Source: Candidatus Latescibacterota bacterium
GTDB taxonomy: Bacteria > Latescibacterota > UBA2968 > GCA-2709665
Reading direction: 5' to 3'
Assembly (NCBI GenBank): GCA_965198095.1
Contig: OZ240239.1
Coordinates: forward strand, 118,641-182,640
DNA: 64,000 nucleotides
Shown here one piece after another: positions 4,158 through 55,152 of the stretch. The position numbers and the translations under genes were made by a program. The notes beneath the pieces were generated by a model, which made no database searches, was not told the origin of the DNA, and saw nothing but the letters and a program-made list of their open reading frames with translations. The first letter of the stretch is position 1. Each line of letters starts with the position of its first letter.

Positions 4158-4187
4158 CGGTACCCGTGTTTTGGTTGCCCGGTACCC
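4158..4187 (-). promoter_or_regulatory. GGTACC-N16-GGTACC box (copy 1; variant ..TTTTGGTTGCCC..) upstream of the MR/MLE-dipeptidase-Nif3-GHL operon
   Basis: CGGTACCCGTGTTTTGGTTGCCCGGTACCC lies ~70 bp upstream (gene sense) of the 4091 start. See the first finding. Confidence 0.5.
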
Positions 4188-7704: not shown

Positions 7705-9288
7705 TTATCCGCGATTGTCCTCACCTGAACAAGAGATACGCACGTGCACGTTCTTCACGACGATACCCCTGTTGGAAGGGTCCCGGTTGATCATCCTGAT
7801 CCTGTTCGACCCCTTCAGAATCTGCTCCGGCTCGACGCTGAAGCTGACCCATTCGCCATTCAGCGAGCCGCCCGAAACATCGCGGTCGTTCAGCCTCACC
7901 TCCACGCCCTCCGCAACGCTCAGTCCGTCGGCCTGAATGCTGAGCGTCACATCAGGTCTTTGACCCCGCCGATCGCCCGACGGATCCTCGCCGATCGTCA
8001 TGGTCACCGTGAAAGGCCGTGTGGGCTCGAGCTTCGCGGGACATTCCGGGTCCAGCACGGTGGGCAGCTCACAAAAACGAAGGAGATCTCGAATCTCTCG
8101 CCCCAGGAGAAACCGAAAATGCCCGTCCGAGAAATAGTCCTTGTCGAGCCGTGACAGGAAATCGGGGTCCCCCATCTCTCGCCACCCCGAGCTTTCGGGA
8201 TCGTCCGGCTGGCGTCTCTGTCCTCTCATTCCCGGTCGATTGGGGACGAGGTCGAAGTAGTTGAAGGTATAGACCCCGTCGGCGCCCGAGTGCCAGACAT
8301 TCATAGCGCGAGCGCGGAAATTTCTCATCGGAAGGCCGTCCTGAACGTCGGCCGGTCCCTCACGCCGTTTGGACCCGGACCAGCTCAGGCAGGGATAAAC
8401 CGTCACGCCGTGGCTGCGGCCCAGCGCCACCCACGCATCCCAGGGCGCCAACTCCCACTCGCCCGGAATCAGCAGGTCCACGAGCCCCTGTTCCAGCCAC
8501 GCCCTCACGTCCAGGCCGATCGCCTCGCAGCACGAAACCGAAGCGGGAATCCGCACCGCGACGAGGATCGGGCGCCTCCGCTCCAGGCCGATCCGTTCCG
8601 TCATGTCCCGAACCCGGCGAAGCAGGTCGGTCATCACATCCCGCTCCGCCTGCGTGCAGTCCTTCCCGTTCGCGTTGCACCTGAAGTGAGGCGGGTGGCG
8701 CATCCAGTCCATCTCGATCCCGTCCACGTCGTACCGCTTGCAGACATCCTCCTGCATCCCGAACGCTTTCTCCCGGACCTCCGCCTCGTCGTAGGCCGCC
8801 CCGGACCAGAATCCGAAGGCAGGAGGATCCTCGAGAGACCCGAACAGGAGCTGAGGGTTGTCCCCCTTGAACTGAGACCCCAGCATGTGCCACAGCGGGT
8901 AGGCGTCGTGGATGTCGTTCATCCGCATCGACCAGAAGACCTCGATCCCGTTCGCCCTGCAGAAGTCGACCATGATCTCCAGCGGGTCCAGACCGGCCTC
9001 GTGAAACGCCTTCGTCCGGTTCGCCTCGAACACGCCCTCTCTGGAAACGAACGGCTCGGAGACGTCGCTCATATGGGTCGCCATCCCCAGGCCGGCGCTC
9101 GTGCAGTAGAAGATCGAATCCACGTGCGTGCCGAGGAGGGGCGTCGTTCGGTCGGCCAGGAGCGCCTCGCGACTGATATCCTTGTCGCCAAGCCTATACA
9201 TAATAGTATTGCCGTCGTTATTGAAGATCACGCGCCGCCTGCGATGGGTGGCCTGCTCACGTCTCCTTCTGAGTTCGTCGAGTTGCAC
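7705..9288 (-). CDS. GHL-family TIM-barrel glycoside-hydrolase-like protein, subfamily B (N-terminal RRREQ-rich extension)
   Basis: 527 aa. Motifs ..RRVIFNNDGNTIMY.., DSIFYC, ..YDVDGIEMDWMRHP.. Likely GTG start. No signal peptide. Tandem paralog of the 9310 gene. Confidence 0.6.
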   Translation of the reverse strand: MQLDELRRRREQATHRRRRVIFNNDGNTIMYRLGDKDISREALLADRTTPLLGTHVDSIFYCTSAGLGMATHMSDVSEPFVSREGVFEANRTKAFHEAGLDPLEIMVDFCRANGIEVFWSMRMNDIHDAYPLWHMLGSQFKGDNPQLLFGSLEDPPAFGFWSGAAYDEAEVREKAFGMQEDVCKRYDVDGIEMDWMRHPPHFRCNANGKDCTQAERDVMTDLLRRVRDMTERIGLERRRPILVAVRIPASVSCCEAIGLDVRAWLEQGLVDLLIPGEWELAPWDAWVALGRSHGVTVYPCLSWSGSKRREGPADVQDGLPMRNFRARAMNVWHSGADGVYTFNYFDLVPNRPGMRGQRRQPDDPESSGWREMGDPDFLSRLDKDYFSDGHFRFLLGREIRDLLRFCELPTVLDPECPAKLEPTRPFTVTMTIGEDPSGDRRGQRPDVTLSIQADGLSVAEGVEVRLNDRDVSGGSLNGEWVSFSVEPEQILKGSNRIRMINRDPSNRGIVVKNVHVRISCSGEDNRG

Positions 9289-9309
9289 GTCCCGAATCTC
9301 CGTGAAGGA

Positions 9310-10821
9310 TCAACCCGAATGGGCAATTCGCACGTGAACGTCCTTCAGAAGGACTTTGTTCGACGGATCCCGGTTGATCACCTTGATGGTGTTCGCCCCT
9401 TTTCGGATCCGCTCCGGCTCGACGCCGTAGCTGACCCATTCCTCCTGGAGATCGCCGTTCGAAAGAGCGCGGTCGTTCAGCCTGACTTCCAGACGGTCCG
9501 CTTCGGTCAGACCGTCGACGCGGACGCTCAGCGTCACGCTGGGATTGGATCCCGAGTCCTTTCCGGGCAGGTCTTCGCCAATCGTCACAATCGCCGTGTG
9601 AGGCCGGGTCGGTAAGAGCATCACGGGACTTCCCGGGTCCAGCGCAGTCGGATACTCGTAAAACCGAAGCAGGCCTTTGATCTCCCGCCCCAGCAGAAAC
9701 CGAAAATGACCGTCCGGGAAGTAGTCCTTGTCCAGTCCGGCCAGGAGCTCGGGGTCGCCCACCTCCCGCCAGGCCGCGCTCGATGGGTCGAACAGATTGT
9801 AGGTGTGGATCCCGTCCGCACCCGCGTGCCAGACGTACATCGCCCTGGCGCGGAAGTTCCTGAGCGCGATCCCGTCCTGCACGTCGGGCGGCCCCTGACG
9901 CCGCCTGGATCCTGACCAGGTCAGATCCGGATAGACCGGCACGCCGTGCTCCCGGCCCAGCTTTACCCAGGTCTCCCACGGCGCCAGCTCCATCTCCCCG
10001 GGGACCAGCAGATCCACGAGATCCTCCTTCAGCCACGCCCTCACGTCCAGGCCCATCACTTCGCAGCACCCGACAGAGGCGGGAAGGCGCTCCGCCACGA
10101 GCATCGGGCGGCCGCGCTCCAACCCGACCTGCTCCGTCATCTCGCGAATACGGCGGTGCAGGCCCGTCATGATCTCCCGCTCCACCTGCGTGCAGTCCTC
10201 CCCATTCGTGCCGCATTTGAAATGAGGCGGGTGGCGAAGCCAGTCCAGCTCGATGCCGTCCACGTCGTACCGCTTGCAGACATCCGCAAGCAGCTCGAAC
10301 GCCCGTTCCTGAACCTCCGGTTCGTCGTAATTCAGTCCTGACCACATTCCGTACTCGGATGGGTCTTCCAGCGATCCGTGCAGAACCTCGGGGTGGTCCT
10401 TCTTGAACTGAGGAATCATCTCAGACCACCGCGGCTGGCCGTCGTGGGTATCGTTCATCCGCATAGACATGAAAATCTCGATCCCGTTCTCCCTGCAGAA
10501 GTCGATCATAATCTGAAGAGGGTCCAGACCCGCCTCGTGGAACGCCTCGATCATGTTCGGCGCGAACACACGCGTCTTCGCGAGGAACGGTTCCGCGACA
10601 TCGCTGATGTAGGACACGTGACCCAGCCCTGCGCTCCAGGGGCAGTAGAAGATCGAGTCGACGTGCGATCCGATCAGCCCTGTCGTGCGGTCCGCAAGGA
10701 GAGCTTCGCGGCTCACCTCCTTGAGGTTGTAGACAATATCGCAGCCGTCGTTGTTGAAAATGATCCGACGTTTTCGGTGTTTGGCCTGCTCTCGCTGTTC
10801 CCTCAGTCGTTTCAATTCCAT
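9310..10821 (-). CDS. GHL-family TIM-barrel glycoside-hydrolase-like protein, subfamily B
   Basis: Start refined to MELKRLREQREQ.. (M23 of ORF 9310..10887), supported by a GAGGAG Shine-Dalgarno and by the N-terminus of the 7705 paralog. Motifs IIFNNDGCDI, DSIFYC, YDVDGIELDWLRHP. Confidence 0.6.
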   Translation of the reverse strand: MELKRLREQREQAKHRKRRIIFNNDGCDIVYNLKEVSREALLADRTTGLIGSHVDSIFYCPWSAGLGHVSYISDVAEPFLAKTRVFAPNMIEAFHEAGLDPLQIMIDFCRENGIEIFMSMRMNDTHDGQPRWSEMIPQFKKDHPEVLHGSLEDPSEYGMWSGLNYDEPEVQERAFELLADVCKRYDVDGIELDWLRHPPHFKCGTNGEDCTQVEREIMTGLHRRIREMTEQVGLERGRPMLVAERLPASVGCCEVMGLDVRAWLKEDLVDLLVPGEMELAPWETWVKLGREHGVPVYPDLTWSGSRRRQGPPDVQDGIALRNFRARAMYVWHAGADGIHTYNLFDPSSAAWREVGDPELLAGLDKDYFPDGHFRFLLGREIKGLLRFYEYPTALDPGSPVMLLPTRPHTAIVTIGEDLPGKDSGSNPSVTLSVRVDGLTEADRLEVRLNDRALSNGDLQEEWVSYGVEPERIRKGANTIKVINRDPSNKVLLKDVHVRIAHSG

Positions 10822-11038
10822 ATCGCGAAACTCCTCATCTAACGCGTGCGCGAAACAAATCCCCCCTGCCCCTCCCTCGACTCGCAAGCTCGCTCGGGAC
10901 AGGCCTTTGCTAAAGGGGGGAGACTACTCGTACCGACATACTACCCATCAAGAAACGGAATCCTCCCCCTTTGGAAAAGGGGGACTGAGGGGGATTTCGT
11001 TCGGAATAAAGCATTCTGGTCAGGAACTCATACCGCAA

Positions 11039-13063
11039 TCACACCGCCGTATAAGAAAAATACCGCGCGTCGTTCGCGTCCAGCTCCACCGGAAGACCCT
11101 TCGCCATCAAATCCTTTCCAGAGTACTCGTCCGCCTCGCCCGACTTCTCGTTGGTCACACGATAGGTGCTCCCCGAATCGAGCGACCTCATCCGAATCTC
11201 CAGCCGATCCGTTGTGCCGTAATACCGGAAGACAAGCACGATCCCCTCTTTCGTCCCGTCACGGAACTGTCCGGCGTCCCAATCCGCCTCGTCCTGCGGC
11301 TGCGGCGTCAGGTGATGGTAGTCCTTCATCAGCAGATGCCGAAACCGCTTGTAGACCCCGATCCAGTGCTTCAGGTTCGCCAGCGGCACCGCCTCGATCT
11401 CGTCCATCCTGGCGCTGATGAAGAGCATCCCCGCCATACGGCTGATGCAGGACAGGTCCGAGATCTCCTCGTCCATCCCGATGTGACCCTTCAGCGGCTT
11501 GGGCGCCAGGATCGTCCCGAGGTGACTCGCGGGCAGGAAGGTGTTCCCGCTCAGCTGCATCCGCCGGCAGCGATGAGGATCGCCGCTGAACTCGTTGGCC
11601 CAGCATCCGTGGGACCGCCTCACCACGCCCAGATCGAGTCGGTGCGCCCCGACGGAATTGTTTTGAATGAAGACGTCAGGGTGCCGCTCGAGCAGCCGCT
11701 CCCACACCGAATACAGCCCCTCGTAATACGCGAACTGGATCTTCCCCGTCGGGTCCACGGCCTGCCACGTCGGCAAAGGTCCCTGGTCGCACTCCCAGTG
11801 GATGTATCTCAGCTTCAGTCGCTCGATCACGCCACTGACCAGTTCGAACACATAGTCGCACGCCTCGCGAAGCGCATAGTTCATCAGGCGATATCTGATT
11901 ACCACGAATTTCCAATCGCTCGCACCCTTCGGTGCGTCCGGGAAGAGCAGGTGGGGTTTCTCGTTCCAGATCTTCGTCCCCTCGGAGATCACTTCCAGGT
12001 CGAGGAACAACCCCATACCGATCTCCCTGGAGCGGAGATGTTCCGCCAACGCCTCCATGCCGCGAGGCCACTTCTGCGGGTCTTCAGGCCAGTTCCCAAA
12101 ACCCGTCGCGTGGAGACCCTTGAACCACATGACCACCAAGTCCGCCATCTCTACACCCAGTTCGGCGTTCACATCCGCGTGCAGAAAGAGCTCGTCCTCT
12201 TCAAAGGGCTCCCGGTTTCCCGGCCAGTAGGAATAGGTCACAGGAGGGAGCGCGGCGCCATGGAGCGGAGGGATCAGATGACCCGCGATATACCTTCGCA
12301 GGGCGTTGCTGCCCGCGTCGATGTCGCCCTCGAAGAAGCCGACGTGAACACGCGGAAGCTTCAGGCGCTCGCCCGGCTCCAGGACCAGTCCGTCCACTCC
12401 CGGACCGAGCTTCAGACTCAGGCCAGGTTCAAAGCCCGTGTAAGGCCGTTTCTCATCCGTCCGTTCCTCCGCCTGGACCCGATTCAAGACCTTGAAGTGA
12501 CCGTGCCACAGCCCCGACCACTCGAGGCCGAGAAAGAGTCCGGGTGCGTCCGACCGGGCGCCCGCCGTGGCCAGAAAGATCGGCAGATCCTGGTCCGAGG
12601 AAACGCCGTCTGCCGGCCCGTGGCTGAACTCCGGACCGAACCCCGCCATCGGCATATCCGTGCGCACCCAGTAGACCTCCCTACCCGGATAGCCCAGAAG
12701 CTTCCCGTAGGCACCACCAGAGCTGCTCACGATCTTCGGTATGCCTTCGAACCCGAACAGCGTCATGCTCAGCGCCCACAGGTCTGAAATCGGCTTGGAG
12801 CGCTCCGACGAGGTGTTCGTCAGCGAGAGCTGGTACTCCACCGCACCATAGTCAGGAACAACCTCCACGTGGCAGATCGCATCCAGGCCGGCGTCGCTGC
12901 CGAACCCGAGCTCCCAGCTGTCTTCCGACACCTGCTCGACCCCGTCCTCTGCCCACGTAACAGCGGCATCTTCCATCACGACCGAGAACAGCTCGGTTCG
13001 TTCGATGAACCGGGCCAGTGAAGGCGGGGCCGGCTTCAAGAATGCGTCGAATGTGGCTTGCAT
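11039..13063 (-). CDS. GH36-like alpha-galactosidase family protein (tandem copy 1)
   Basis: Start refined to MQATFDAF.. (GGGAG Shine-Dalgarno; matches the paralog start). YIHWECDQG region resembles the GH27/36 nucleophile region. ~84% aa identity to the 13313-15337 product over the N-terminal 50 residues. Confidence 0.65.
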   Translation of the reverse strand: MQATFDAFLKPAPPSLARFIERTELFSVVMEDAAVTWAEDGVEQVSEDSWELGFGSDAGLDAICHVEVVPDYGAVEYQLSLTNTSSERSKPISDLWALSMTLFGFEGIPKIVSSSGGAYGKLLGYPGREVYWVRTDMPMAGFGPEFSHGPADGVSSDQDLPIFLATAGARSDAPGLFLGLEWSGLWHGHFKVLNRVQAEERTDEKRPYTGFEPGLSLKLGPGVDGLVLEPGERLKLPRVHVGFFEGDIDAGSNALRRYIAGHLIPPLHGAALPPVTYSYWPGNREPFEEDELFLHADVNAELGVEMADLVVMWFKGLHATGFGNWPEDPQKWPRGMEALAEHLRSREIGMGLFLDLEVISEGTKIWNEKPHLLFPDAPKGASDWKFVVIRYRLMNYALREACDYVFELVSGVIERLKLRYIHWECDQGPLPTWQAVDPTGKIQFAYYEGLYSVWERLLERHPDVFIQNNSVGAHRLDLGVVRRSHGCWANEFSGDPHRCRRMQLSGNTFLPASHLGTILAPKPLKGHIGMDEEISDLSCISRMAGMLFISARMDEIEAVPLANLKHWIGVYKRFRHLLMKDYHHLTPQPQDEADWDAGQFRDGTKEGIVLVFRYYGTTDRLEIRMRSLDSGSTYRVTNEKSGEADEYSGKDLMAKGLPVELDANDARYFSYTAV

Positions 13064-13115
13064 TTCAGCTCCCGCTTCCTGCAGCAACTACGTCACCATA
13101 CACTTCAGATGCGCA

Positions 13116-13278
13116 TGTCATTCCGAGGAGCCTCTGCAGAGTCAGATCACGCTTTGCCAAAAACTTGGCGTATTTGCGGCGACGAGGAATCTCAAAAGGG
13201 CATTACTCATTGACTATCTCTTGAAGTATCAGCTGCTGCGTAGACTGTTGCGATTCCTGGCTCACGCTCGGAATGACA
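13116..13278. repeat. ~163-bp element bounded by perfect 12-bp terminal inverted repeats (TGTCATTCCGAG ... CTCGGAATGACA), copy 1
   Basis: Inverted termini read directly. Lies between the GH36 paralogs, 3' of GH36 copy 2. Confidence 0.5.
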
Positions 13279-13312
13279 GATTAGGTTGCGAGGTTCCTGT
13301 CGAAAAAGGTGA

Positions 13313-15337
13313 TCACAACTTTTTGTAGGAGAAAAACCTGGCATCATTGGCCTCCAGCTCCGCCGCAAGGCCCTGCGCCATCAAGTCCTTACCCGAACAC
13401 TCCTCCGCTTCGCCCGATTTCTCGTTCGTCACACGATACTGGCTCTTCGGATCGAGCGATCTCATCCTTATCTCCTGCCGTCCTGTCCTGCCGTAAAACC
13501 GGAAGACCAGCACGATTCCCTCCTTCGTCCCGTCACAGAACTGCCCGGCGTCCCAGTCCGCCTCGTCCTGCGGCTGCGGCGTCAGGTGATAGTAGTCCTT
13601 CATCAGCAGATGCCGGGACCGCTTGAAGACCCCGATCCAGTGCTTCAGGTTTGCCAGGGGCGCCGCCTCGATCTCGTCCATCCTGGCGCTTACAAAAAGC
13701 ATCCCCGCCATTCGGCTGATGCAGGACAGATCCGAGATCTCCTCGTCCATCCCGATATGGCCCTTCATCGGCTTGGGCGCCAGGATCGTCCCGAGGTGAC
13801 TCGCGGGCAGGAAGGTGTTCCCGCTCAGCTGCAACCTGCGGCACCGGTGTGGATCGCTCATGAACTCGGTGGCCCATCCGCCGTGGGAACGCTTGATCAC
13901 TCCCAGGTCGAGCCGGTGCGCCCCGACCAGGTTGTTCTGAATGAAGACGTCGGGGTGCCGCTCCAGCAGCCGCTCCCACACCGAGTACAGCCCCTCATAG
14001 AACGCGAACTGGATCTTCCCGGTCGGATCGACGGCCTGCCACGTCGGCAGGGGTGCCTGGTCACACTCCCAGTGGATATACCTCAGCTTCAGGCGCTCGA
14101 TCAGTCCGCTGACCATCTCCAAGACCGTATCGCACGTTTCCGGAAGCGCATAGTTCATCAGGCGGTATCTGAATCCCGCGAACTTGAAGTCGTGCGCCCC
14201 CTTCTTTGGATCCGGGAAGAGCAGGTGCGGTTTTTCGTTCCAGAAATCCGTCCCCTCGGCAACCACCTCCATTTCGATGAACAGCCCCAAACCGATCCCC
14301 TTCGCGCGGGCGTGTTCCGCGAAGGCCTCGATCCCGCTCGGCCACTTCTCCGGATCTTCCGGCCAGTTTCCGTGACTCCTGGGATGGTGACCCCTGACCC
14401 AGGCGACGTCCACGTTTGCCGTCTCGATACCGAGTTCCGCGCTCACGTCCATGTGTTGGCACAACTCATCCTCTGTAAATGGATCCCGGTTCCCCGGCCA
14501 GTAGGAATAGGTCACCTGAGGGAGCGCCATCCCCTCGAGTGGAGGGATCAGATAACCTGAAATGTAGCGGCGAAGGGCGTTGCTGCCGGCGTCGATGTCC
14601 CCCTCGAAGAAGCCGACGTGAACGCGCGGAAGCTTCAGGCGCTCGCCCGGTTCCAGGACCAGTCCATCCACTCCGGGGCCGAGCTTCAGACTGAGGCCGG
14701 GTTCAAAGCGCGTATAACGCCGTTTTTCGTCCGTCCGTTCCTCCGCCTGGCCCAGGTTTAGCGTCTTGAAGTGCGCGTGCCACAGCCCGGACCACTCCAG
14801 GCCCAGAAAGAGTCCCGGTGCGTCCGACTGGGCGCCGGCCGTGGCCAGAAAGATCGGCAGGTCCTGGTCTGAAGACACGCCGTCCGCCGGCCCGTGGCTG
14901 AACTCCGGTCCGAACCCCGACATCGGCATATCCGTCCGCACCCAGTACACCTCCCTACCCGGATAGCCCAGAACCTTCCCGTAGGCACCGCCGGAGCTGC
15001 TCACGATCTTTGGAAGACCTTCGAACCCGGACAGCGTCAGGCTCAGCGCCCACAGGTCCGAAATCGGCTTGCAGCGCTCCGACGAGGTGTTCGTCAGAGT
15101 GACCTGATACTCTACGGCACCATACTCTGCAACAACCTCCACGTGGCAGATCGCATCCAGCCCGGCGTCGCTGCTGAACCCGAGCTCCCAGGTATGCTCC
15201 GATACCTGCTCGACCTGGTCCTCCGTCCACGAAACGGCCGATGCTTCCATCATCACCGAAAACAGCTCCGTTCGCTCGATGAACTCGGCCAGTGAAGGTG
15301 GAGCCGGCTTCAGGAATGCATCGAATGTGGCCTTCAT
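13313..15337 (-). CDS. GH36-like alpha-galactosidase family protein (tandem copy 2)
   Basis: 674 aa. Collinear and highly similar to 11039-13063. Confidence 0.65.
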   Translation of the reverse strand: MKATFDAFLKPAPPSLAEFIERTELFSVMMEASAVSWTEDQVEQVSEHTWELGFSSDAGLDAICHVEVVAEYGAVEYQVTLTNTSSERCKPISDLWALSLTLSGFEGLPKIVSSSGGAYGKVLGYPGREVYWVRTDMPMSGFGPEFSHGPADGVSSDQDLPIFLATAGAQSDAPGLFLGLEWSGLWHAHFKTLNLGQAEERTDEKRRYTRFEPGLSLKLGPGVDGLVLEPGERLKLPRVHVGFFEGDIDAGSNALRRYISGYLIPPLEGMALPQVTYSYWPGNRDPFTEDELCQHMDVSAELGIETANVDVAWVRGHHPRSHGNWPEDPEKWPSGIEAFAEHARAKGIGLGLFIEMEVVAEGTDFWNEKPHLLFPDPKKGAHDFKFAGFRYRLMNYALPETCDTVLEMVSGLIERLKLRYIHWECDQAPLPTWQAVDPTGKIQFAFYEGLYSVWERLLERHPDVFIQNNLVGAHRLDLGVIKRSHGGWATEFMSDPHRCRRLQLSGNTFLPASHLGTILAPKPMKGHIGMDEEISDLSCISRMAGMLFVSARMDEIEAAPLANLKHWIGVFKRSRHLLMKDYYHLTPQPQDEADWDAGQFCDGTKEGIVLVFRFYGRTGRQEIRMRSLDPKSQYRVTNEKSGEAEECSGKDLMAQGLAAELEANDARFFSYKKL

Positions 15338-15377
15338 CTCAGCCCCGTTCTACATCACGATACACTTTGCAGGAACC

Positions 15378-15542
15378 TGTCATCCCGAGGAGCCTTTACG
15401 GAGTCAAATCATGCCTTTCTTAAAAACCCTGGCGAATTACGGCGACGAGGAATCTCAGGAAGAAAGTATTCACTTAACAATATCTTGAAGACGTAGCTGC
15501 TCCGTCATGTGTTGAGATTCCTCGCTCGCGCTCGGAATGACA
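15378..15542. repeat. ~165-bp element with terminal inverted repeats TGTCATCCCGAG / CTCGGAATGACA, copy 2 (diverged)
   Basis: Same architecture and ~70% internal identity to 13116-13278. Lies upstream of GH36 copy 2. Confidence 0.5.
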
Positions 15543-15595
15543 AATCGGGTTGTGGACCTTGGTGATACACGCCCATCCGAAAGCCAAATACGTCA

Positions 15596-16783
15596 TCACC
15601 AGCTGGCGATGAATTCCTCCACGTCGAAATCTTCCGGCAAGTCCTGGCAGACGTACTCCATCGGCCCGGACTGGAAGCCCGGAACAAACTGCTCTTCATC
15701 AGATCTGAGCCTCGCGTCCAGCGCAGAGAAACGCTGCCACAGGGTATCGATCTCTTTCTGCGAAAATCGAGGGCCGACAACCTCGTGCTGAGTCCAATCA
15801 CGGAGATAGTTTCTTTGCTTCGGGTGAGAATCGAACCGGAGCTTGTAGACCAGTTTCGAGATGAGGATCAGACAGACGATCCGCGCAGGTTCGGCTGGGT
15901 GAAGCCTTGCAAGTGCATCCTGAAAAGGCTCAACATCCTTGTCCAAAACGGCGCGGAGCAGCGACGTGATCGTATCGCACTCCTCCGCATAAAACGCCGC
16001 GAGTCGATCGTAGACCCGGCGGCCGGATTCCGACAGATATCGGGTGAATCCGAGATCTCGAACAAACCCGGGGACGTACGGAAAGACCGGGCCTCCGAAT
16101 GAACGGTAGCCCAGATGGACTGTCCTGCGCAGCTTGGTCCCGTAGTTGCTGCCCCAGTGGAGAATCGTATTCGTATACACCACCCCGTCGCCCGCTTTCA
16201 ACTCCACCTGAAGGCCATTGGGGAGGGGGACACAGGGGTCCTCGTCCAGCAGGCAGTTCTCCTCGTCGGTATTCGATCGACGGTGACTTCCGGGAATGAC
16301 CCACAGCACGTCGTCGTCGTAGAGCGGGATGTTCCACTGCAGATAGCCCGGAGCGTTTTCCAGCAGGTCGATCTGCAGGCCGCGAAGCGGCCCTTCGTCC
16401 ATCGGATGGATGTCGCGATGCCACTTCGCCGGCCCGTGGTCGCGCACCGGGTTGCACATCATGAAGATGCCTGTGTTCGACGCTTCCTCAGCTTGCATCA
16501 ATTGGCGGTTGACGCCCCTCGTGTTTTCGTGAAGGCAGAACTCCATCGTGTCGGCAGTCGTTTCGTCGATCAGGTTCTGCCATCCCCTCAGCCGGGGCTG
16601 GGGATCGGCCTCCCACACCCCGCCCGGCGGGTCTCCCGGTTCGCGGTCACGGGCCCAGATCTCCCGCTGCCGATCGACAAGCGTCTCGAAATTTTTCCTC
16701 AGCCCCTCGAGTTGATCCGGCGGAATCACCTCACGCAGGATGATGAACCCATCTTTTTTCAGTTGCCCGAGGTCTACATTCAT
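15596..16783 (-). CDS. phytanoyl-CoA dioxygenase (PhyH) family Fe(II)/2-oxoglutarate-dependent oxygenase
   Basis: 395 aa. PhyH-like N-terminus (KDGFIILREVIPPDQL), WHRDIH..D and later H consistent with the HxD...H facial triad. Confidence 0.65.
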   Translation of the reverse strand: MNVDLGQLKKDGFIILREVIPPDQLEGLRKNFETLVDRQREIWARDREPGDPPGGVWEADPQPRLRGWQNLIDETTADTMEFCLHENTRGVNRQLMQAEEASNTGIFMMCNPVRDHGPAKWHRDIHPMDEGPLRGLQIDLLENAPGYLQWNIPLYDDDVLWVIPGSHRRSNTDEENCLLDEDPCVPLPNGLQVELKAGDGVVYTNTILHWGSNYGTKLRRTVHLGYRSFGGPVFPYVPGFVRDLGFTRYLSESGRRVYDRLAAFYAEECDTITSLLRAVLDKDVEPFQDALARLHPAEPARIVCLILISKLVYKLRFDSHPKQRNYLRDWTQHEVVGPRFSQKEIDTLWQRFSALDARLRSDEEQFVPGFQSGPMEYVCQDLPEDFDVEEFIASW

Positions 16784-16845
16784 CTACAGCAGTCCTGTTC
16801 TCCCCCTTCCCTTTAGCGAAGGGGGCTGGGGGGTTAGGTCCGTTT

Positions 16846-17517
16846 TCACGCCTTCAGTATGGCCGAAAGCTGCTCCGTCCTCACCAGATCCGCCCAACGC
16901 GATCCGATCAGACAGGGCATGATGTCCTTCGTCCCCTGCGTCTGGAAGAGCACCGCGTCTTCCACCCAGCTGTTTTTGTAACCGTATTCCCGGCTCTGGA
17001 TCAGCGTATAGAACACGCAGGCGTCCCCGAACTGGCCGCAGAGCACGTTGTGCTCGATCCCCGCGTTGCGCAGCATGAAGTCCAGCCCGGTCCCCGTAAA
17101 CGAGGAGCTCGTCGGCTTCTGAATCACGATCTCGCCCTCGATCGGCGCCAGCTCATCGATCACCGACATCGGTTTGCTGCCCACGAGGTCGTAATCCCGG
17201 CCTTTCATGTAGGGCACCATGTCCCGCCCGTCTTTCGTTCGCCTCGCCATTTCCATAAACACCACCGTCCCGCCCGCTTTGCGAAAGACATCCAGCACCA
17301 GCCTGATCCTCGGGATGATCTCCGCCAGCTCCTTCTCGAAGAACGCCCGCCGCTCCTCCAGCGCTTCGGCTTTCAGCCCGGTCTGTCCCGTGACCCACCA
17401 GTCCGGGTCACAGAATCGATTCATCATGTCCACGATAATCAGCGCCGTCCGATCTGGCGGAAGTTGGTCCGCCTCACTCAACCGCGACACCGTGAACTGG
17501 TCCAAATCCACGAGCAT
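16846..17517 (-). CDS. isochorismatase-family cysteine hydrolase
   Basis: 223 aa. Canonical ALIIVDMMNRF and catalytic-Cys region (VLCGQFGDACV). Confidence 0.8.
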   Translation of the reverse strand: MLVDLDQFTVSRLSEADQLPPDRTALIIVDMMNRFCDPDWWVTGQTGLKAEALEERRAFFEKELAEIIPRIRLVLDVFRKAGGTVVFMEMARRTKDGRDMVPYMKGRDYDLVGSKPMSVIDELAPIEGEIVIQKPTSSSFTGTGLDFMLRNAGIEHNVLCGQFGDACVFYTLIQSREYGYKNSWVEDAVLFQTQGTKDIMPCLIGSRWADLVRTEQLSAILKA

Positions 17518-17629
17518 CGGTCTCTCCTTTGCTTTTCGTTTTTCTCAATCTTCTCTGCGACCTCTGCGCCTCGGATCACAATCCTTTGGGGGCAGGCGGT
17601 GATTCTTGGTTCTTGATTTTCCCGATCCC

Positions 17630-17660
17630 CGGTACCCGTGTTTTGCTTTCCCGGTACCCG
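17630..17660 (-). promoter_or_regulatory. GGTACC-N16-GGTACC box (copy 2)
   Basis: CCGGTACCCGTGTTTTGCTTTCCCGGTACCCG, ~115 bp upstream of the isochorismatase start. Confidence 0.5.
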
Positions 17661-17701
17661 GATTTCCATTCCGCAATCCCAAATTCGCAATCCGCAATTG
17701 G

Positions 17702-19255
17702 CTAGCCTCTCATCGGCAGAATCCGGTAATTGATCTCCAGGTTCACGTCGTGGAGCACGAATTCCGTCTCCACCCGCGGATTCCGTTTCCTCAGCACCGC
17801 TTCCACCTCATTCCATCCCTGCTTGATCCAGCCCCCCGCCCTTACATCATATCGAAGCGCATAGTTCCCCTGAAAGGCATTGGGGCCGGGACCTACGGTG
17901 TATTTCTGCGGAACGTCCAGCGGGACGGTCTGCGGCAGGGCTTTTCCATTCAGCTTGAACTCGTATTCGTCCTCCGAGGTCACGCCCACGAGGATCAGCT
18001 CGAGGGTCACTGCATCCACGATCCCCCGCTCACCGGCCTTCTCCAGATCGTCGCTCACCAGAAAACGGATCGTCTCTCCGGAATTCTCCTCCAGCGCAAA
18101 CGGAAGCGGATAGTCACAGCCCTCATAAGCTTCTGGCGAAGGCCACGAGCGGACAGAGCCGAAGGCGGGTGTGACCACATAAAGCTTGTCCCTGAACTCA
18201 AGCGTGGCCGGATCCCCGAGCTGCGACAGGATCTCGCGGTCATCCATCTTCGCCATCGTCTGGTGATGGAAGTTGAACAGGTAGATGCCGTCCACGCCCT
18301 GCCGCCAGGCGTTGAGCGCCCCGGCCCGCAGGGCCGCTTTCGGCGGGCGGCTGTGGCCCCCGGGCCCCACTTGCTCGGAGGTACTGCCCAGGATGCGGCA
18401 GTCCGTGCCCTCGGCCATTTCCAGGAACGACTCGAACGGAAGGTAGGTCACGGTATCCCAGTAGCATGAGGGTGAGACGAAGTCGACGAGCCCCTCCTTG
18501 ATCCATGTCCCTACCTCCAGACCGAGCTCGTGACATTTCTCCGGTGTACCGGCAACGCGAACGCCGAACCCTACAGGACGGCCCCGCGCCTCGCCGATAC
18601 GATTCAGCAGCGCCCGCGCCTCTCGCATGTATTCGGTAAGCATCGGCCGGGCTTCGTCCATGTCGGGATAGTGGTAGCCGGGGTGACGGATGAAGTCCCA
18701 CTCGAACCCGTCCGTGTCGTAGCGCGTGCATGCCTCCTCCACCAGCGCCAGACGATGGGCGCGTACCTCCGGAATCGCAAAGTTCAGACCGGTACTCTGT
18801 TTGTCTGAACGGGGCATCGGGGCGGCGGCCTTGTCGCCCAGCTCGTACTCCGGATGGCTGACCCGCCATTCACTCTTCCACTGGTAACGGGAGCCGTGCA
18901 GGTCGTTGAACCGGTTCGCGATCCAGTACTCCATCCCGGCCTCGTGGGCCGCCTCCAGCGCCACCTTCCAGGGGTCTACCCCTTCCGCCCAGAGCCTCAG
19001 CATAATCTCCTGCTGCCGCCACTCGCTCACATAGCCGACCGTCTCCATGTCGATGCCCTTGGCGCCGGGTACCTCGGTCGGCCACAGCGGAACCGCGTCG
19101 CCGAACCCGAACTGGTGGCAGACCACCGCGTCCACCTGTGTGCCGATAAACCTGCCTACCGACTCGTAGACGAACTCCTCCGGCGTCATCGGCGGTGCGC
19201 AGTAGAGCAGAAAGCTTCCGTCATTGTGGTAGAAAAATTTCGGTGGCTTGGCCAT
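17702..19255 (-). CDS. GHL-family TIM-barrel glycoside-hydrolase-like protein, subfamily A
   Basis: 517 aa. MAKPPKFFYHNDGSFLLYCAPPMTPEEFVYE.., VDAVVCH, YDTDGFEWDFIRHP. AGGAGGGAG Shine-Dalgarno. No signal peptide. Confidence 0.6.
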   Translation of the reverse strand: MAKPPKFFYHNDGSFLLYCAPPMTPEEFVYESVGRFIGTQVDAVVCHQFGFGDAVPLWPTEVPGAKGIDMETVGYVSEWRQQEIMLRLWAEGVDPWKVALEAAHEAGMEYWIANRFNDLHGSRYQWKSEWRVSHPEYELGDKAAAPMPRSDKQSTGLNFAIPEVRAHRLALVEEACTRYDTDGFEWDFIRHPGYHYPDMDEARPMLTEYMREARALLNRIGEARGRPVGFGVRVAGTPEKCHELGLEVGTWIKEGLVDFVSPSCYWDTVTYLPFESFLEMAEGTDCRILGSTSEQVGPGGHSRPPKAALRAGALNAWRQGVDGIYLFNFHHQTMAKMDDREILSQLGDPATLEFRDKLYVVTPAFGSVRSWPSPEAYEGCDYPLPFALEENSGETIRFLVSDDLEKAGERGIVDAVTLELILVGVTSEDEYEFKLNGKALPQTVPLDVPQKYTVGPGPNAFQGNYALRYDVRAGGWIKQGWNEVEAVLRKRNPRVETEFVLHDVNLEINYRILPMRG

Positions 19256-19530
19256 GCTCCCTCCTGTATTTGGCTTGGTTTCGATTTCCAGACTACCCTT
19301 TGACGGCTAAAGCGCCGCGTAGTCTGGATACAGCTTTCTCAGTTTGATCCGAGCATCGTTTGTCGTGAACCGCCAATGGACAGCCTTGCTTTTGTTGTTG
19401 CGATCGTTCGACCAGGCGGAAGTCTGCTCTTTGAGTCGTACGGCCGCTGATAGACGTCCAAGACATCCTCTATAGCGGCGACAAACGCGGCGTTCTGCTT
19501 GGGCGGAATCACCCAGCACGTTCTCAGGTG

Positions 19531-19660
19531 AGCTTACGTTCGCCAGCAGGAGCTGGCTCCTACCTTATGAACGGCTTGTGAATATTACCTGATTCCAAAC
19601 GCCGGTAAATCCGGTAGGAGCCGCCTCCCGGCGGCGAACACTTCACCCCGATACTCTCAA
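19531..19660. repeat. REP-like hairpin repeat (GGCTCCTACC ... CCGGTAGGAGCC family), single copy
   Basis: ..GCCAGCAGGAGCTGGCTCCTACCTTATGAACGGCTTGTGAATATTACCTGATT..CCGGTAAATCCGGTAGGAGCCGCCTCCCGGCGGCGAACACTTCACC. Same family as the units around the RAYT gene. Confidence 0.6.
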
Positions 19661-19912
19661 CCGACGGCCTAGAGCACCCGGATACTTGAGGCTTGGTGCT
19701 GTGAAATCCCCTCAATCCCTCCCTCGACGCGCAGGCTCGCTCACCTCGGTACGGCCGGGAGCCTACGCGGTGCAGGCGGGAAGGGCCTTTTTCAAAGGGG
19801 AAGGTTGCCTATTTGCTTTACGAACGACGAACAACGATCCACGATTTACTCCGCGCCTCTGCGGCGGACTATGCCTTTTCGAATCCGCAATTGAGTGGCG
19901 TTACCGGCTCTG

Positions 19913-19941
19913 CGGTACCCGTGTTTTGCTTTCCCGGTACC
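19913..19941 (-). promoter_or_regulatory. GGTACC-N16-GGTACC box (copy 3)
   Basis: CGGTACCCGTGTTTTGCTTTCCCGGTACC, just downstream of the 19949 gene stop. Preceded by ACGAACGACGAACAACGATCCACGA. Confidence 0.45.
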
Positions 19942-19948
19942 AGGCCCT

Positions 19949-21517
19949 TCATCCTCGCATGGGTAGAATCCGGTAGTTGATCTCGAGGCTCAGGTCGTGG
20001 AACACGAAGTCGGTCTCGATCCCGGAATTCCGCTTCTTGAGCATCGCCTCCACCTGGTTCCAGCCCTGACGGACCCAGTCGCCTACCCTGACATCGTACC
20101 GGAGGGCATAGTTCCCGTGATAGGCATTCGGGCCGGGGCCCACCCGGTAGTGTCGGTTCAGAGCGACGAGGGCCGTCTCGGGCAGCGCCCTGCCGTTCAG
20201 CTTGAACTCGAACTCATCCTCCGAGGTCAGAGAGACCACGATCAGCTCCAGCGTTACGGCATCCAGAATGCCTCTTCTGGCAGCGGTCTCCAGGTCATCG
20301 GCCACCCGGAAACGGACCGTGGTTCCCGATCCCTCCTGCAGCGTCACCGGCAGCTGATGCTCCCATCCCGCGAAAATCGACGTCTCGTGAGGGACCCGCT
20401 TCAAGGCATCAAAAGTACCGGCGATCACATAAAGTTTGTCCTTGAACGCCAGCGTCTCCAGATCTCCGAGTTGTGACAGCACATCCGAATCATCCACGTT
20501 GTAGGTGGTCTGGTGATGGAAGTTGAACACGTAGACGCCGTCCACCCCCTGCTGCCAGGCGTTCATCGCTCCGGCGCGCAGGGCGCCCGCGGGTGGGAGG
20601 GGATGCTGGCCGGGCCCGACCTGCTCCGACGTACAGCCCAGAACGCGGCATTCCGAGTCTTTCGCGATGTCCACAAATTCCTCGAACGGCGAATCGGTCG
20701 CGCTGTCCCAGTGGGGCGCAGGGGAGATGTAGTCCACGAGCCCCTCCGCGATCCACGTCTCCAGCTCCAGACCGATGGCGTGACACTTCTCCAGGGTGAC
20801 TGGACAACGCACACCGAAACCGAGCGGGCGGGCCCGACGGTCGCCGATACCGTTCAGCTTTGTTCTGGCCTCGCGCACGTAGGCGGTCAGGATCGAACCG
20901 TTTTCAGGGAGGTTGGGCACGCTGTGTCCTGGTTCCCGCTGAAAGTCCCACTCGAACCCGTCCACGTCATAGCGCTCGCAGGCCTCCAGCACGATCGCCA
21001 GACGATGAGCGCGCACTTCAGGGATCGCATAGTTCAGACCTGTACACCGCTCGCCGTAAACGCTTCCAGGGCCGTGCAGCCCCGAACCGCACTCATCGCC
21101 CAGCTCATACTCGGGATGCTGCGCGCGAAACTCGCTCCGCCACTCGTAGCGCGGGCCGTGCAGGTCGTTGAACCGCTTCCCAACCCAGTACTGCATCCCC
21201 GCCTCGTGGGCCGCCTCCAACGCCAGCTTCCACGGATCGATCCCCTCCGCCCACAGCCGCTTCATAATCTGCTGCTGCCGCCACTCGCTCACGAAGCCGA
21301 CCTTCTCCCGCTCGATTCCCTTGGCGCCCGGGACCTCCGAAGGCCAGAGCGGCACCGCGTCGCCGAAGCCGTACATGTGACAGACCACGGCGTCCACCTG
21401 GGTGCCGATGAAGCGCCCGACCGCTTCGTAGACGAACTCCTCGGGCGTCATCGGCGGGGCGCAGTAGAGCAGAAAGCTCCCGTCGTTGTTGTAGAAGAAC
21501 TTCGGAAAGGCCACCAT
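19949..21517 (-). CDS. GHL-family TIM-barrel glycoside-hydrolase-like protein, subfamily A
   Basis: 522 aa. MVAFPKFFYNNDGSFLLYCAPPMTPEEFVYE.., YDVDGFEWDFQREP. Tandem paralog of the 17702 gene. Confidence 0.6.
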   Translation of the reverse strand: MVAFPKFFYNNDGSFLLYCAPPMTPEEFVYEAVGRFIGTQVDAVVCHMYGFGDAVPLWPSEVPGAKGIEREKVGFVSEWRQQQIMKRLWAEGIDPWKLALEAAHEAGMQYWVGKRFNDLHGPRYEWRSEFRAQHPEYELGDECGSGLHGPGSVYGERCTGLNYAIPEVRAHRLAIVLEACERYDVDGFEWDFQREPGHSVPNLPENGSILTAYVREARTKLNGIGDRRARPLGFGVRCPVTLEKCHAIGLELETWIAEGLVDYISPAPHWDSATDSPFEEFVDIAKDSECRVLGCTSEQVGPGQHPLPPAGALRAGAMNAWQQGVDGVYVFNFHHQTTYNVDDSDVLSQLGDLETLAFKDKLYVIAGTFDALKRVPHETSIFAGWEHQLPVTLQEGSGTTVRFRVADDLETAARRGILDAVTLELIVVSLTSEDEFEFKLNGRALPETALVALNRHYRVGPGPNAYHGNYALRYDVRVGDWVRQGWNQVEAMLKKRNSGIETDFVFHDLSLEINYRILPMRG

Positions 21518-21721: not shown

Positions 21722-21751
21722 CGGTACCCGTGTTTTGCTTTCCCGGTACCC
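21722..21751 (-). promoter_or_regulatory. GGTACC-N16-GGTACC box (copy 4)
   Basis: CGGTACCCGTGTTTTGCTTTCCCGGTACCC, ~205 bp upstream of the 21517 start. Preceded by ..CACGATCCACGAACAACGGTTTTTACGATCC. Confidence 0.5.
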
Positions 21752-25888: not shown

Positions 25889-25928
25889 AGCGTGTTTCCC
25901 TTTATGAATGAGGTTGTTCTCGTCCGTC

Positions 25929-28280: not shown

Positions 28281-28314
28281 GGGTAAGACTCCTTCTGTGT
28301 GAATGCGCTGCCAT

Positions 28315-35322: not shown

Positions 35323-35352
35323 CGGTACCCGTGTTTTGATTTCCCGGTACCC
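35323..35352 (-). promoter_or_regulatory. GGTACC-N16-GGTACC box (copy 5; TTTTGATTT variant)
   Basis: CGGTACCCGTGTTTTGATTTCCCGGTACCC, ~130 bp upstream of the SDR start. Preceded by AGACGAACGACGATCCAAGGTTTT. Confidence 0.5.
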
Positions 35353-36296: not shown

Positions 36297-36516
36297 GAGC
36301 CTTCCCTCCTTTTGCAGCGTCCCCCGTCCCCGCAAAAGACATGCCGTGTGGCACCGGCAGCAAGCTGCCGGTGGATCATGATGAGCCTGTTGTGTTTCTT
36401 AGCGTGAGGAATCTTGCACGGGCAGACAAGCTGCCCGTGGCACACGTGACTGGATTCGCGATCTCACGCGCAGAACCACCGGCGATCCGATTCAGTCTTT
36501 CGAACGACGGTTTTTT

Positions 36517-49575: not shown

Positions 49576-49616
49576 CCGGTACCCCGTGTCTTGTTCTCCC
49601 GGAACCCGGTACCCGG
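49576..49616 (-). promoter_or_regulatory. GGTACC-box variant (CCCGGTACCCCGTGTCTTGTTCTCCCGGAACCCGGTACCCGG)
   Basis: ~100 bp upstream of the enolase-superfamily dehydratase start. Has an extra GGAACC half-site. Confidence 0.45.
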
Positions 49617-51553: not shown

Positions 51554-51667
51554 TTTCACTCCTTGTATATCGCCAGTCAGAATCCACCGGCAGCAAGCTG
51601 CCGGTGCCACACCACACAACATCGATTACGAGACTATATCACCCGCGCCACGGGCACGCTCGAGGCT

Positions 51668-55111: not shown

Positions 55112-55152
55112 TCGGTGATGAGAACGCCGTGATACGTAGCTCTTTCATCAGC

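Follow-up and report, generated by a model that had tools for sequence, protein, structure and literature searches.

The five intact genes of a glycoside-hydrolase-like family found in the 64,000-nt stretch of Latescibacterota DNA analysed here (the window) almost certainly encode members of CAZy family GH156, the inverting exo-sialidases, judging from their sequences and predicted structures. Our best explanation overall, to which we give a probability of roughly 0.78, is that these are functional GH156 members, with a chemistry directed at carboxylate-bearing sugars, that act in the cytoplasm and have diverged as paralogs.

All five genes are on the minus strand and form two clades, with A0, A1 and A2 in clade A and B1 and B2 in clade B. 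The genes and associated fragments are as follows:

1-1040 (ORF 3-1040), minus strand: paralog A0, the N-terminal 346 codons with the ATG at 1038-1040, truncated by the left window edge
7705-9288, minus strand: paralog B1, 527 aa, GTG start, basic N-terminal helix
9310-10821, minus strand: paralog B2, 503 aa with an ATG start at 10821, inside a maximal ORF that extends to 10887
17702-19255, minus strand: paralog A1, 517 aa
19306-19530, minus strand: decayed IS630-family transposase gene, a remnant within the A2-A1 spacer identified by translation and tblastn
19949-21517, minus strand: paralog A2, 522 aa
55032-55097, minus strand: surviving 5' end of a clade-A GH156 gene, a stub of 22 homologous codons with their own ribosome-binding site, within the ORF 54903-55148

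A five-copy expansion in two subfamilies, with two tandem pairs, had been proposed in a first-pass annotation of this DNA, and the open reading frames and BLAST identities bear this out. A1 and A2 are 66% identical, A0 is 48-51% identical to A1 and A2, and B1 and B2 share 63% identity; between the clades identity falls to 24-28%, with E values of 1e-25 to 1e-37 that place the similarity far above chance. B2 lies 21 nt upstream of B1, and A2 is separated from A1 by a 693-nt spacer holding the transposase remnant, which in tblastn matches plasmid genes annotated 'IS630 family transposase' (E 5e-10 to 4e-8). The 5' fragment reported at 54903-55111 is real, but it is shorter than described, and a start at 55111 does not share its reading frame; the stub, MAKPPRFFYNNDGSFMLYLSRP, is 54-62% identical to clade-A N-termini (tblastn E 9e-7 to A1), and its homology, read down from 55097, ends at around 55032, after which the sequence diverges. 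The shared motifs are likewise all present, but had been defined a little too strictly: the five copies have [YF][HN]NDG[SNC] as their N-terminal core, with LIY ahead of it in A0 and not FFY or FY; A0 has L where the motif had W or F; and RHP occurs in three of the five copies, with REP in A0 and A2. The A1 protein has an exact copy on ENA contig ERZ25072076:ctg246047.

The same annotation could not place these proteins in a CAZy family, a view overturned by phmmer, profile and Foldseek searches, all of which give the GH156 enzyme EnvSia156 (ORF12p, PDB 6RZD/6S00), the founding member of the family and an inverting exo-alpha-sialidase from a hot-spring metagenome. In phmmer searches of the PDB with single copies, 6rzd was the sole strong match, with E values of 2e-21 to 2e-23 (A1, 2.2e-23; A2, 5.8e-23; B2, 2.1e-21), and its alignment with A2 shows the RxNDxH and DGxExDWxR blocks. 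A family profile of 31 sequences matched EnvSia156 with an E value of 1.1e-78 over residues 6-488 of the 511 in the chain; its second-best match was Cwp19 (E 2.6e-13). The strong match is to a glycosidase family, and the strong match to a well-characterised non-glycosidase family that had been named as evidence against a glycoside-hydrolase-like family is absent. Identity to EnvSia156, the only characterised structure, is 24-26%, and in a neighbour-joining tree it falls in a third clade, apart from A and B, neither of which is the clade with characterised members.

AlphaFold models of A1 (pLDDT 90, pTM 0.92) and B1 (pLDDT 87, pTM 0.90) fold as a (beta/alpha)8 barrel with an immunoglobulin-like beta-sandwich at the C-terminal end, in agreement with the earlier description of a TIM-barrel glycoside-hydrolase-like family. 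For both models the top three Foldseek matches were the GH156 structures 6s00, 6s04 and 6rzd, over the whole length and with TM scores of 0.73-0.80 (against 6s00, E 1.1e-34 and TM 0.77/0.80 for A1, and E 2e-35 and TM 0.74/0.78 for B1). Cwp19 came next, at E 1e-13 to 1e-14 and a TM of 0.46-0.48 normalised to the query. The proteins resemble EnvSia156 in their barrel and C-terminal beta-sandwich, their length of about 510-530 aa, their Asp/His pair, their Arg/Arg/Asn clamp and a buried Arg246; they differ from it in the extra basic N-terminal helix of clade B (residues 2-14 of the B1 model, helical at pLDDT 97) and in the organisation of their genes in tandem multi-copy arrays.

In EnvSia156, Asp14 on strand 1 is the general base and His134, after strand 3, the general acid, assignments supported by mutants, while Arg129, Arg202 and Asn346 coordinate the carboxylate of the sugar (PMC6811678). 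These five residues, together with R246, N131 and D132, are found unchanged in each of the five copies of the window and in three more on the same contig; in a sister Latescibacterota genome they are kept in all 11 copies except one (L004_c1), which has Glu at the D132 position. A1 and A2 conserve the catalytic and carboxylate-binding residues, and the equivalents in the other copies are:

EnvSia156: D14, R129, H134, R202, R246, N346
A0: D12, R115, H120, R190, R233, N329
B1: D25, R122, H127, R197, R246, N343
B2: D25, R121, H126, R196, R245, N342

Across alignments of 30 and 31 sequences the catalytic Asp is invariant and the His is invariant or at least 90% conserved. By homology to GH156, hydrolysis would proceed by a single, inverting displacement, in which the NNDG aspartate near the N-terminus (D12 in clade A, D25 in clade B) would be the general base that activates water and the RxNDxH histidine (H120 of A1, H127 of B1) would protonate the leaving group. 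The substrate, a 2-ulosonic (sialic-type) acid, would be bound through its C1 carboxylate by R115, R190 and N328 (A1 numbering). An acidic-sugar substrate is suggested by the same residues, and we consider it probable that the proteins are ulosonic-acid glycosidases.

The choice of sugar is less clear-cut. The glycerol-chain (O7-O9) and aglycone contacts of EnvSia156 (N15, C53, Y135, W164, F203, F278/W279 and Q351) differ here, and those other than F278/W279 are not conserved, so that Neu5Ac itself may not be the substrate; as the main natural substrate we find it rather doubtful. In every copy N15 is replaced by G or A and Y135 by G or D, and C53 and Q351 are unaligned. The hydrophobic +1 platform is retained in part: clade A has Y/H-W at 278/279, position 203 is E or H, and W164 falls within a variable insertion; clade B differs at 278/279, where two alignments place its residues differently. 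Trp164, Phe203, Phe278 and Trp279 are described in the literature as highly conserved, not as family-defining. Since the positions at which the paralogs differ among themselves (equivalent to N15, Y135, W164, F203, F278 and W279) lie along the subsites for the glycerol side chain and the aglycone, the copies have probably diverged in the ulosonic acid, linkage or aglycone that they accept, and the tandem copies have thus probably sub-functionalised.

A variant of our preferred explanation, which we hold to be a serious possibility though short of an even chance, is that these GH156-fold enzymes act on non-sialic 2-ulosonic acids or modified sialic acids in place of Neu5Ac, the candidates being Kdn, Kdo, Dha, pseudaminic and legionaminic acids and O-sulfated, O-methylated or O-acetylated sialic acids. 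The clamp and catalytic pair are kept, but no copy matches EnvSia156 in the residues surrounding C5 and the glycerol chain, and a survey of the family names these sugars as candidate substrates and this part of the pocket as variable (10.1101/2022.06.28.497753). The gene neighbourhood is consistent with this variant: the neighbouring pyruvate aldolases are HpcH or divergent DHDPS proteins and not NanA, and a D-lyxose/mannose-type isomerase is encoded in the window. However, C5 points to solvent in EnvSia156, which for this reason accepts Neu5Ac, Neu5Gc and Kdn (PMC6811678), so the pocket differences need not change the sugar, and the link to the aldolases is one of proximity only.

The same strand carries two GH36 genes, a GH127 gene, a BNR propeller gene, two sulfatase genes and a gene for an HpcH pyruvate aldolase, as well as a SusC-like outer-membrane protein 7 kb upstream and PorV; no inner-membrane transporter was identified within the 64-kb window. 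Two of these neighbours, and the isomerase mentioned above, were located as follows:

47266-48330: BNR-type protein, the only one in the window, not a clear GH33
53238-54773: sulfatase gene, following the 5' stub
57037-57747: D-lyxose/mannose-type isomerase

A second array of three GH156-like copies, on the same contig and 36 kb away, adjoins three HpcH aldolases and one DHDPS-family aldolase, enzyme classes that cleave 2-keto-3-deoxy acids. The DHDPS-family protein is not a NanA equivalog, and none of the canonical sialic acid catabolic genes nanA, nanK and nanE occurs in the window.

The window copies have no signal peptides, as judged by ORF limits and hydrophobicity and as the first-pass annotation had stated. 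The listed starts of A1, A2 and B1 are the first start codons after the upstream stop, and these maximal ORFs leave no room for a signal peptide; the maximal extension of B2 adds 22 aa, LRVEGGAGGICFAHALDEEFRD, which are not signal-like. The catalytic Asp is at residue 12 in clade A and 25 in clade B; here as in EnvSia156 it comes within the first 14-25 residues, so there is no signal peptide. In contrast, Tat, Sec or lipoprotein signals are present on homologs from other phyla: the clade-A relatives in Acidobacteriota begin with a twin-arginine signal, the conserved helix is preceded by a hydrophobic N-terminal stretch in about 77 of 112 homologs of clade B, and the 2018 JBC paper reported many homologs with signal peptides. 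The lack of a signal peptide is lineage-specific, and work in the cytoplasm on imported oligosaccharides, as previously proposed, is plausible and the most likely arrangement. Within the cytoplasm, the enzymes likely release sialic-type (2-ulosonic acid) sugars from oligosaccharides that the cell has imported. The remaining glycosidases of the window and both sulfatases also have no signal peptides.

More tentatively still, clades A and B may be cytoplasmic exo-glycosidases diversified by repeated tandem duplication for different ulosonic acids or for sialic acids that differ in linkage or modification, for instance Kdn, Kdo-like, sulfated or methylated forms in the glycans of algae or marine invertebrates; in what would be an unusual strategy, glycans would be dismantled within the cell by glycosidases and sulfatases without export signals, and the keto-deoxy acids so released would be split by the co-located HpcH/DHDPS-type aldolases and not by the Nan pathway.

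It is improbable that some copies are decaying or non-functional duplicates and the expansion a neutral redundancy tied to mobile elements. One copy is indeed cut to a 22-codon stub, the IS630 remnant lies between A2 and A1, and an IS200-like transposase is present in the window. However, the contig holds at least eight intact GH156-like copies and the sister genome at least 11, and the five window copies and 14 further ones (three on the same contig, 11 in the sister genome) all have full-length open reading frames, their key residues intact but for one position in one copy. Each window copy also has a 1:1 ortholog at 84-92% in the sister genome, which is of a different species, implying that the duplicates have been kept since before the species split, and the third-position GC of the copies (0.78-0.81) is typical of the genes of the window.

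Several copies had been described as lying directly behind GGTACC boxes. The hexamer is over-represented in the window (20 sites against 8.1 expected), but each box is one end or the other of a strand-specific 28-nt element, found 3-43 nt after stop codons, that also adjoins unrelated genes. Its occurrences near A1 and A2 are:

17631-17658, minus strand: same 28-nt element, 43 nt past the A1 stop
19914-19941, minus strand: same 28-nt element, 7 nt past the A2 stop
21723-21750, minus strand: 28-nt element GGTACCGGGAAAGCAAAACACGGGTACC, between the upstream 824-aa gene (18 nt past its stop) and A2 (206 nt ahead of its start)

In a related genome the same element stands right after the A1 ortholog (L002 7562-7589).

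The conserved D-x-DG-x-E-x-D-W-x-R block had been compared to the GH27/GH36 nucleophile region, with the suggestion of a distant clan GH-D-like barrel. On that reading the proteins would be retaining glycosidases acting on neutral sugars with the Asp of the block as nucleophile, which we regard as very unlikely. In the A1 model the block does fall on strand 4 of the barrel (E183-187), the strand that carries the nucleophile in GH13, GH27 and GH36; a few clade-B homologs have precomputed Melibiase matches; and two GH36 genes adjoin the GH156-like genes. A weak relation at the level of the fold also stands, with Foldseek matches to GH66, GH36, GH13 and GH27 at E 1e-8 to 1e-11 and TM scores of at most 0.41, but the GH156 and Cwp19/GHL10 matches are much stronger. 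TM scores to GH36 and GH27 are 0.33-0.38, against 0.74-0.80 for GH156; none of the five proteins has a Melibiase Pfam match at E <= 1; the GH156 structure puts catalysis on Asp14 and His134, while the Arg of the block is the Arg202 equivalent of the carboxylate clamp; and an Arg/Arg/Asn clamp would serve no purpose on a neutral sugar. Clan GH-D membership is not supported on these grounds.

Also very unlikely is a peptidoglycan hydrolase or lytic transglycosylase of the type of Cwp19, an extracellular cell-wall lytic enzyme of C. difficile (Clostridioides difficile) from a related TIM-barrel superfamily (Pfam GHL10, PF02638, DUF187). Cwp19 is second-best in the structure and profile searches, and weak GHL10 matches (B2, 31.8 bits; A0, 28.6; A1, 24.0; A2, 22.3; B1, 14.0; two of the five, B2 and A0, exceed the gathering threshold of 27.9 bits) explain why NCBI labels some homologs 'family 10 glycosylhydrolase'. 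However, EnvSia156 itself scores 17.0 bits, so a weak GHL10 match is expected of GH156 proteins; the GH156 profile match is some 65 orders of magnitude better and spans both domains, where Cwp19 has no match to the C-terminal one; the sialidase-specific residues are all kept; and proteins without a signal peptide would not reach the cell wall. Membership of GH33, a family of six-bladed propellers with a Tyr/Glu/Asp catalytic set and an Arg triad, is not supported either, since a TIM barrel is predicted and there is no BNR or Sialidase Pfam match.

GH33 bacterial exo-sialidases share the predicted reaction class, the removal of terminal sialic-type acids, and the setting, that of symbionts possibly living on host sialoglycans; unlike the proteins described here, they are six-bladed beta-propellers that retain configuration via a Tyr nucleophile (PMC6811678). 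GH33 has been reported as enriched in sponge symbionts, and symbiont use of host sialoglycans was proposed from GH33 counts alone (PMC8163846). For GH156, Mann et al. (bioRxiv 10.1101/2022.06.28.497753) list 556 putative sialidases from 18 phyla, with Planctomycetes the largest source and a mean pairwise identity of 28%, and include sequences with at least four of D14, H134, R129, R202 and N346; the window copies have all five. That survey focuses on gut taxa, and its GH156 genes are co-located with other glycosidases without a complete pathway, as in the window. Its text has nothing on paralogs, tandem arrays or copy number, and the sections drawn on here take up neither Latescibacterota nor sponge-type marine MAGs.

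Taken together, the locus adds modestly to a known family, and nothing in it contradicts current understanding. Its value lies in annotation and enzyme discovery: GH156 was defined in 2018, with one structure solved and activity described for two members in the papers drawn on here, and this compact set of intact, diverged paralogs offers a panel for mapping its specificity. Many of the related genomes are MAGs with names pointing to marine sponges, and skipping GH156 would undercount their sialoglycan capacity. For this Latescibacterota lineage, the genes point to a switch from an exported to a cytoplasmic enzyme.

Five long open reading frames on the minus strand, which holds nearly all of the genes in the window (G+C about 61%), clearly encode paralogous proteins on the evidence of pairwise comparison, at the positions proposed in the first-pass annotation. 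They form two clades, A and B, accompanied by a short stub:

3-1040, minus strand: A0, clade A, cut off at the window edge
17702-19255, minus strand: A1, clade A
19949-21517, minus strand: A2, clade A
7705-9288, minus strand: B1, clade B
9310-10821, minus strand: B2, clade B
from 55097, 22 codons, within the ORF 54903-55148, minus strand: 5' stub of a GH156 gene, MAKPPRFFYNNDGSFMLYLSRP

Within the clades, A1 and A2 are 66% identical, A0 is 48-51% identical to these two, and B1 and B2 share 63% identity; between the clades identity is 24-28% (E 1e-25 to 1e-37). The sequence motifs ascribed to the family are present, with small deviations from their original wording. The stub has its own ribosome-binding site, its similarity is gone beyond codon 22, and a sulfatase gene comes next. 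B2 and B1 are separated by 21 nt and A2 and A1 by 693 nt, the latter spacer containing the decayed remains of an IS630-family transposase gene (about 19306-19530, minus strand). An IS200-like Y1 transposase ORF (41889-42323, minus strand; Pfam Y1_Tnp, E 7e-8) lies elsewhere, in a low-coding stretch at 41.6-43.2 kb.

These proteins had been described as TIM-barrel enzymes that could not be placed in a named CAZy family. Scans of the five proteins against Pfam returned only weak GHL10, GH18 and GHL6 matches (GHL10/PF02638 scores of 14-32 bits, with a cutoff of 27.9), and the NCBIfam scan a single weak match, to the ChiD chitinase, for B1; the family looked unassignable because these matches are only marginal. 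Their membership of GH156 is settled by a sequence search of solved structures, in which the sole strong match of each copy searched was 6RZD (E 2e-21 to 2e-23), an entry titled 'exosialidase from uncultured bacterium pG7', which is EnvSia156, the founding inverting exo-sialidase of GH156. A 31-member family profile matched EnvSia156 with E 1.1e-78 over residues 6-488 of 511, spanning both domains, and the runner-up in this search was Cwp19, a GHL10 protein (E 2.6e-13). AlphaFold2 models of A1 (pLDDT 90, pTM 0.92) and B1 (pLDDT 87, pTM 0.90) bear out the barrel fold, with a (beta/alpha)8 barrel followed by a C-terminal beta-sandwich. When these models were compared with the PDB by Foldseek, three GH156 crystal structures ranked first (E about 1e-34, TM 0.73-0.80), followed by Cwp19 (about 1e-13 to 1e-14), while the GH66, GH36, GH13 and GH27 barrels trailed (E 1e-8 to 1e-11, TM at most 0.41). 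At 24-26% identity to EnvSia156, the window proteins fit inside GH156, for which Mann et al. (bioRxiv 10.1101/2022.06.28.497753) give a mean pairwise identity of 28%.

The structure of EnvSia156 identifies Asp14 as the general base and His134 as the general acid, with Arg129, Arg202 and Asn346 clamping the sialic acid carboxylate and Arg246 buried and invariant (PMC6811678). The EnvSia156 sequence, reconstructed for residues 6-488 from the profile-search alignment, was aligned with the paralogs and homologs. Every one of the five window copies keeps the equivalents of D14, H134, R129, R202, N346 and R246 (D12, H120, R115, R190, N328 and R233 in A1); the first five of these residues are exactly the criterion by which Mann et al. 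call GH156 sialidases. The NNDG motif noted previously holds the catalytic Asp, and an RxNDxH motif carries the Arg129 and His134 equivalents. The D-x-DG-x-E-x-D-W-x-R block, which had been likened to the nucleophile region of GH27/GH36, terminates at the Arg202 equivalent; on this alignment it is therefore an element of strand 4 that binds the substrate carboxylate and not a nucleophile motif of the GH27/GH36 type.

Other parts of the EnvSia156 pocket are not conserved. Asn15 and Tyr135, which contact O7-O9 of the glycerol chain in EnvSia156, are replaced by Gly and by Gly (clade A) or Asp (clade B), respectively, and Cys53 and Gln351 are unaligned in the paralogs. The aglycone platform is also altered: Trp164 falls in a variable insertion, Phe203 is replaced by Glu or His, and Phe278/Trp279 become Y/H-W in clade A and other residues in clade B. 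A variable pocket around the acyclic groups is described by Mann et al., who also consider that other ulosonic acids could be GH156 substrates. Because the carboxylate clamp is intact, an acidic sugar with its carboxylate beside the anomeric carbon is more plausible as substrate than a neutral one; by homology, these enzymes most probably release terminal 2-ulosonic (sialic-type) acid residues by hydrolysis with inversion.

No nanA/K/E genes were found in the window, and the Nan pathway lacks support there. The BNR_2 protein at 47266-48330 cannot clearly be placed in GH33, as among PDB structures it best matches an uncharacterised propeller, and a DHDPS-family protein beside a second GH156-like array on the same contig is not a NanA equivalog. 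Nearby HpcH and divergent DHDPS-type aldolases would suit the cleavage of keto-deoxy acids but do not prove it. In sponge symbionts, use of sialoglycans has been proposed from GH33 counts (PMC8163846), and a 2026 study of a deep-sea sponge community counts GH156 among its expressed sialidase genes (PMC13200403).

In A1, A2 and B1 no start codon lies between the preceding in-frame stop and the annotated start, the catalytic Asp is already at position 12 or 25, and the sole possible extension of B2, of 22 aa, is acidic and non-hydrophobic. These limits make an N-terminal export signal impossible barring sequencing error, and the earlier statement that the copies lack signal peptides holds with alternative starts considered. 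Elsewhere in the family, signal peptides were reported for many GH156 homologs in a 2018 JBC paper; Acidobacteriota clade-A homologs open with twin-arginine signals, such as MARKLNRREFQRNVGALTLAG, others with Sec or lipoprotein signals, and in about 77 of 112 clade-B homologs a hydrophobic N-terminus precedes a conserved basic helix. This helix is the 'RRREQ-rich extension' of clade B; it is predicted with a pLDDT of 97 and persists behind the signal peptide in exported homologs, and is therefore structural, which rules it out as a targeting signal.

Signal-like N-termini occur in only three proteins of the window, all encoded on the minus strand within 24842-31422:

PorV/PorQ-family protein
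801-aa secreted protein, with a faint match to the T9SS C-terminal domain
1035-aa SusC/RagA-like outer-membrane protein, with a SusC/RagA-type N-terminal domain

They are lacking in the five GH156 proteins, two GH36 proteins, one GH127 protein, the BNR propeller and both sulfatases. The GH36 (Melibiase-family) genes (11039-13087 and 13313-15337) lie in tandem on the minus strand, immediately upstream of the clade-B pair, and are 83% identical. In the sulfatases (53238-54773 and 57765-59270, minus strand) the catalytic domain begins at residue 6-8, leaving no export signal, an unusual condition among glycan sulfatases that suggests desulfation in the cytoplasm. Three PhyH-family (Fe/2-oxoglutarate dioxygenase) genes (15596-16783, 35358-36335 and 50783-51622, minus strand) are found amid the glycan-degradation genes. 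The simplest reading of these predicted locations is that oligosaccharides would be taken up and then dismantled in the cytoplasm; the proposal of cytoplasmic action thus stands on the lack of export signals, with no inner-membrane transporter found within the window.

The GGTACC boxes reported beside several copies belong to a more widespread element. There are 20 GGTACC sites in the window, with 8.1 expected, and most of them form one or the other end of a 28-nt element, GGTACCGGGAAAGCAAAACACGGGTACC, found on the gene strand:

4159-4186, gene strand: near-identical copy
17631-17658, gene strand: near-identical copy
19914-19941, gene strand: near-identical copy
21723-21750, gene strand: near-identical copy
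35324-35351, gene strand: near-identical copy
49578-49613, gene strand: variant
about 62754-62787, gene strand: variant

All copies are gene-sense and lie 3-43 nt past a stop codon, frequently followed by a TGGATCG-containing motif, and the sister Latescibacterota genome retains the element in the corresponding position. Three copies do flank A1 and A2; the remainder are behind unrelated genes, and the element is therefore not specific to GH156 genes. It folds into a modest hairpin of 6-9 bp with no U-tract (z -0.4 to -2.3), and we do not call it a terminator. It matched no family in an Rfam scan, and Rfam and tRNA scans of the whole window found nothing.

The exact A1 protein is present on a 4.29-Mb ENA metagenome contig (ERZ25072076:ctg246047), where the window occupies about 3,670,582-3,734,581. 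Three proteins encoded near the left edge of the window (1091-1912, 2970-4091 and 5148-6458), looked up to follow the sequence further left, had no entry with the start codons used. In a search made with the clade-A alignment, the closest relative in the species-representative collection was on the 'Candidatus Latescibacterota' MAG chromosome OZ252100.1 (91% identity), our sister genome, with further relatives in Acidobacteriota, Dehalococcoidia, Spirochaetia, Gemmatimonadota, Poribacteria, Planctomycetota and Lentisphaeria MAGs. Going by the usual naming of MAGs, we take several records (COS4, RHO1 and SB0661) to be sponge-microbiome bins and others to be marine water-column bins. In the sister genome, four tandem arrays (3+3+2+3) contain at least 11 clade-A copies between them, and the window's own contig has a second array 36 kb to the right, on a segment (L080) with the following content:

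L080 1-14840: three tandem HpcH/HpaI-type aldolases, a divergent DHDPS-family aldolase and two Gfo/Idh/MocA oxidoreductases
L080 1-14840, continued: DUF6807 and DUF6785, then three tandem GH156-like genes, with GH127-like genes also beside the array

Together with the five window copies, this brings the genome to no fewer than eight intact copies in a stretch of about 120 kb, and the expansion noted from the window is real. All 19 copies examined are full-length and keep the catalytic and clamp residues, the one exception being a Glu at the D132 position in one sister-genome copy (L004_c1). A neighbour-joining tree separates A, B and the EnvSia156 clade and pairs every window copy with a sister-genome ortholog; the duplications are therefore older than the species split and have since been maintained. 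Position 203 switches between Glu and His within arrays, in the same pattern in orthologous arrays, which suggests divergence of the +1 subsite among the array copies.

A second expanded family is interspersed with these genes:

21769-24243, minus strand: 824-aa protein, just upstream of A2
51668-53323, minus strand: 551-aa protein
61192-62712, minus strand: 506-aa protein
62794-63999, minus strand: 401-aa protein, truncated

The 506-aa and 401-aa proteins are a tandem pair (73% identical), the 551-aa protein shares about 31% identity with both, and the 824-aa protein is related to the family through its C-terminal third (23-32%); more copies occur elsewhere on the contig and in the sister genome. 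Searches of Pfam, NCBIfam and PDB sequences matched none of the four. The family has more than 450 homologs, a few of which exceed the cutoff of the Pfam GH32 N-terminal beta-propeller model, and its members are probably distant GH32-like propeller glycosidases. Less may be known of this second family than of the GH156 genes.

We found no report in the searchable literature of the two GH156 clades, the tandem expansion in Latescibacterota or the lineage-specific lack of export signals. Taken together, what is left of interest in the GH156 genes is modest: two uncharacterised clades of the family, a large tandem expansion that has been maintained in Latescibacterota, and a lineage-specific absence of export signals.
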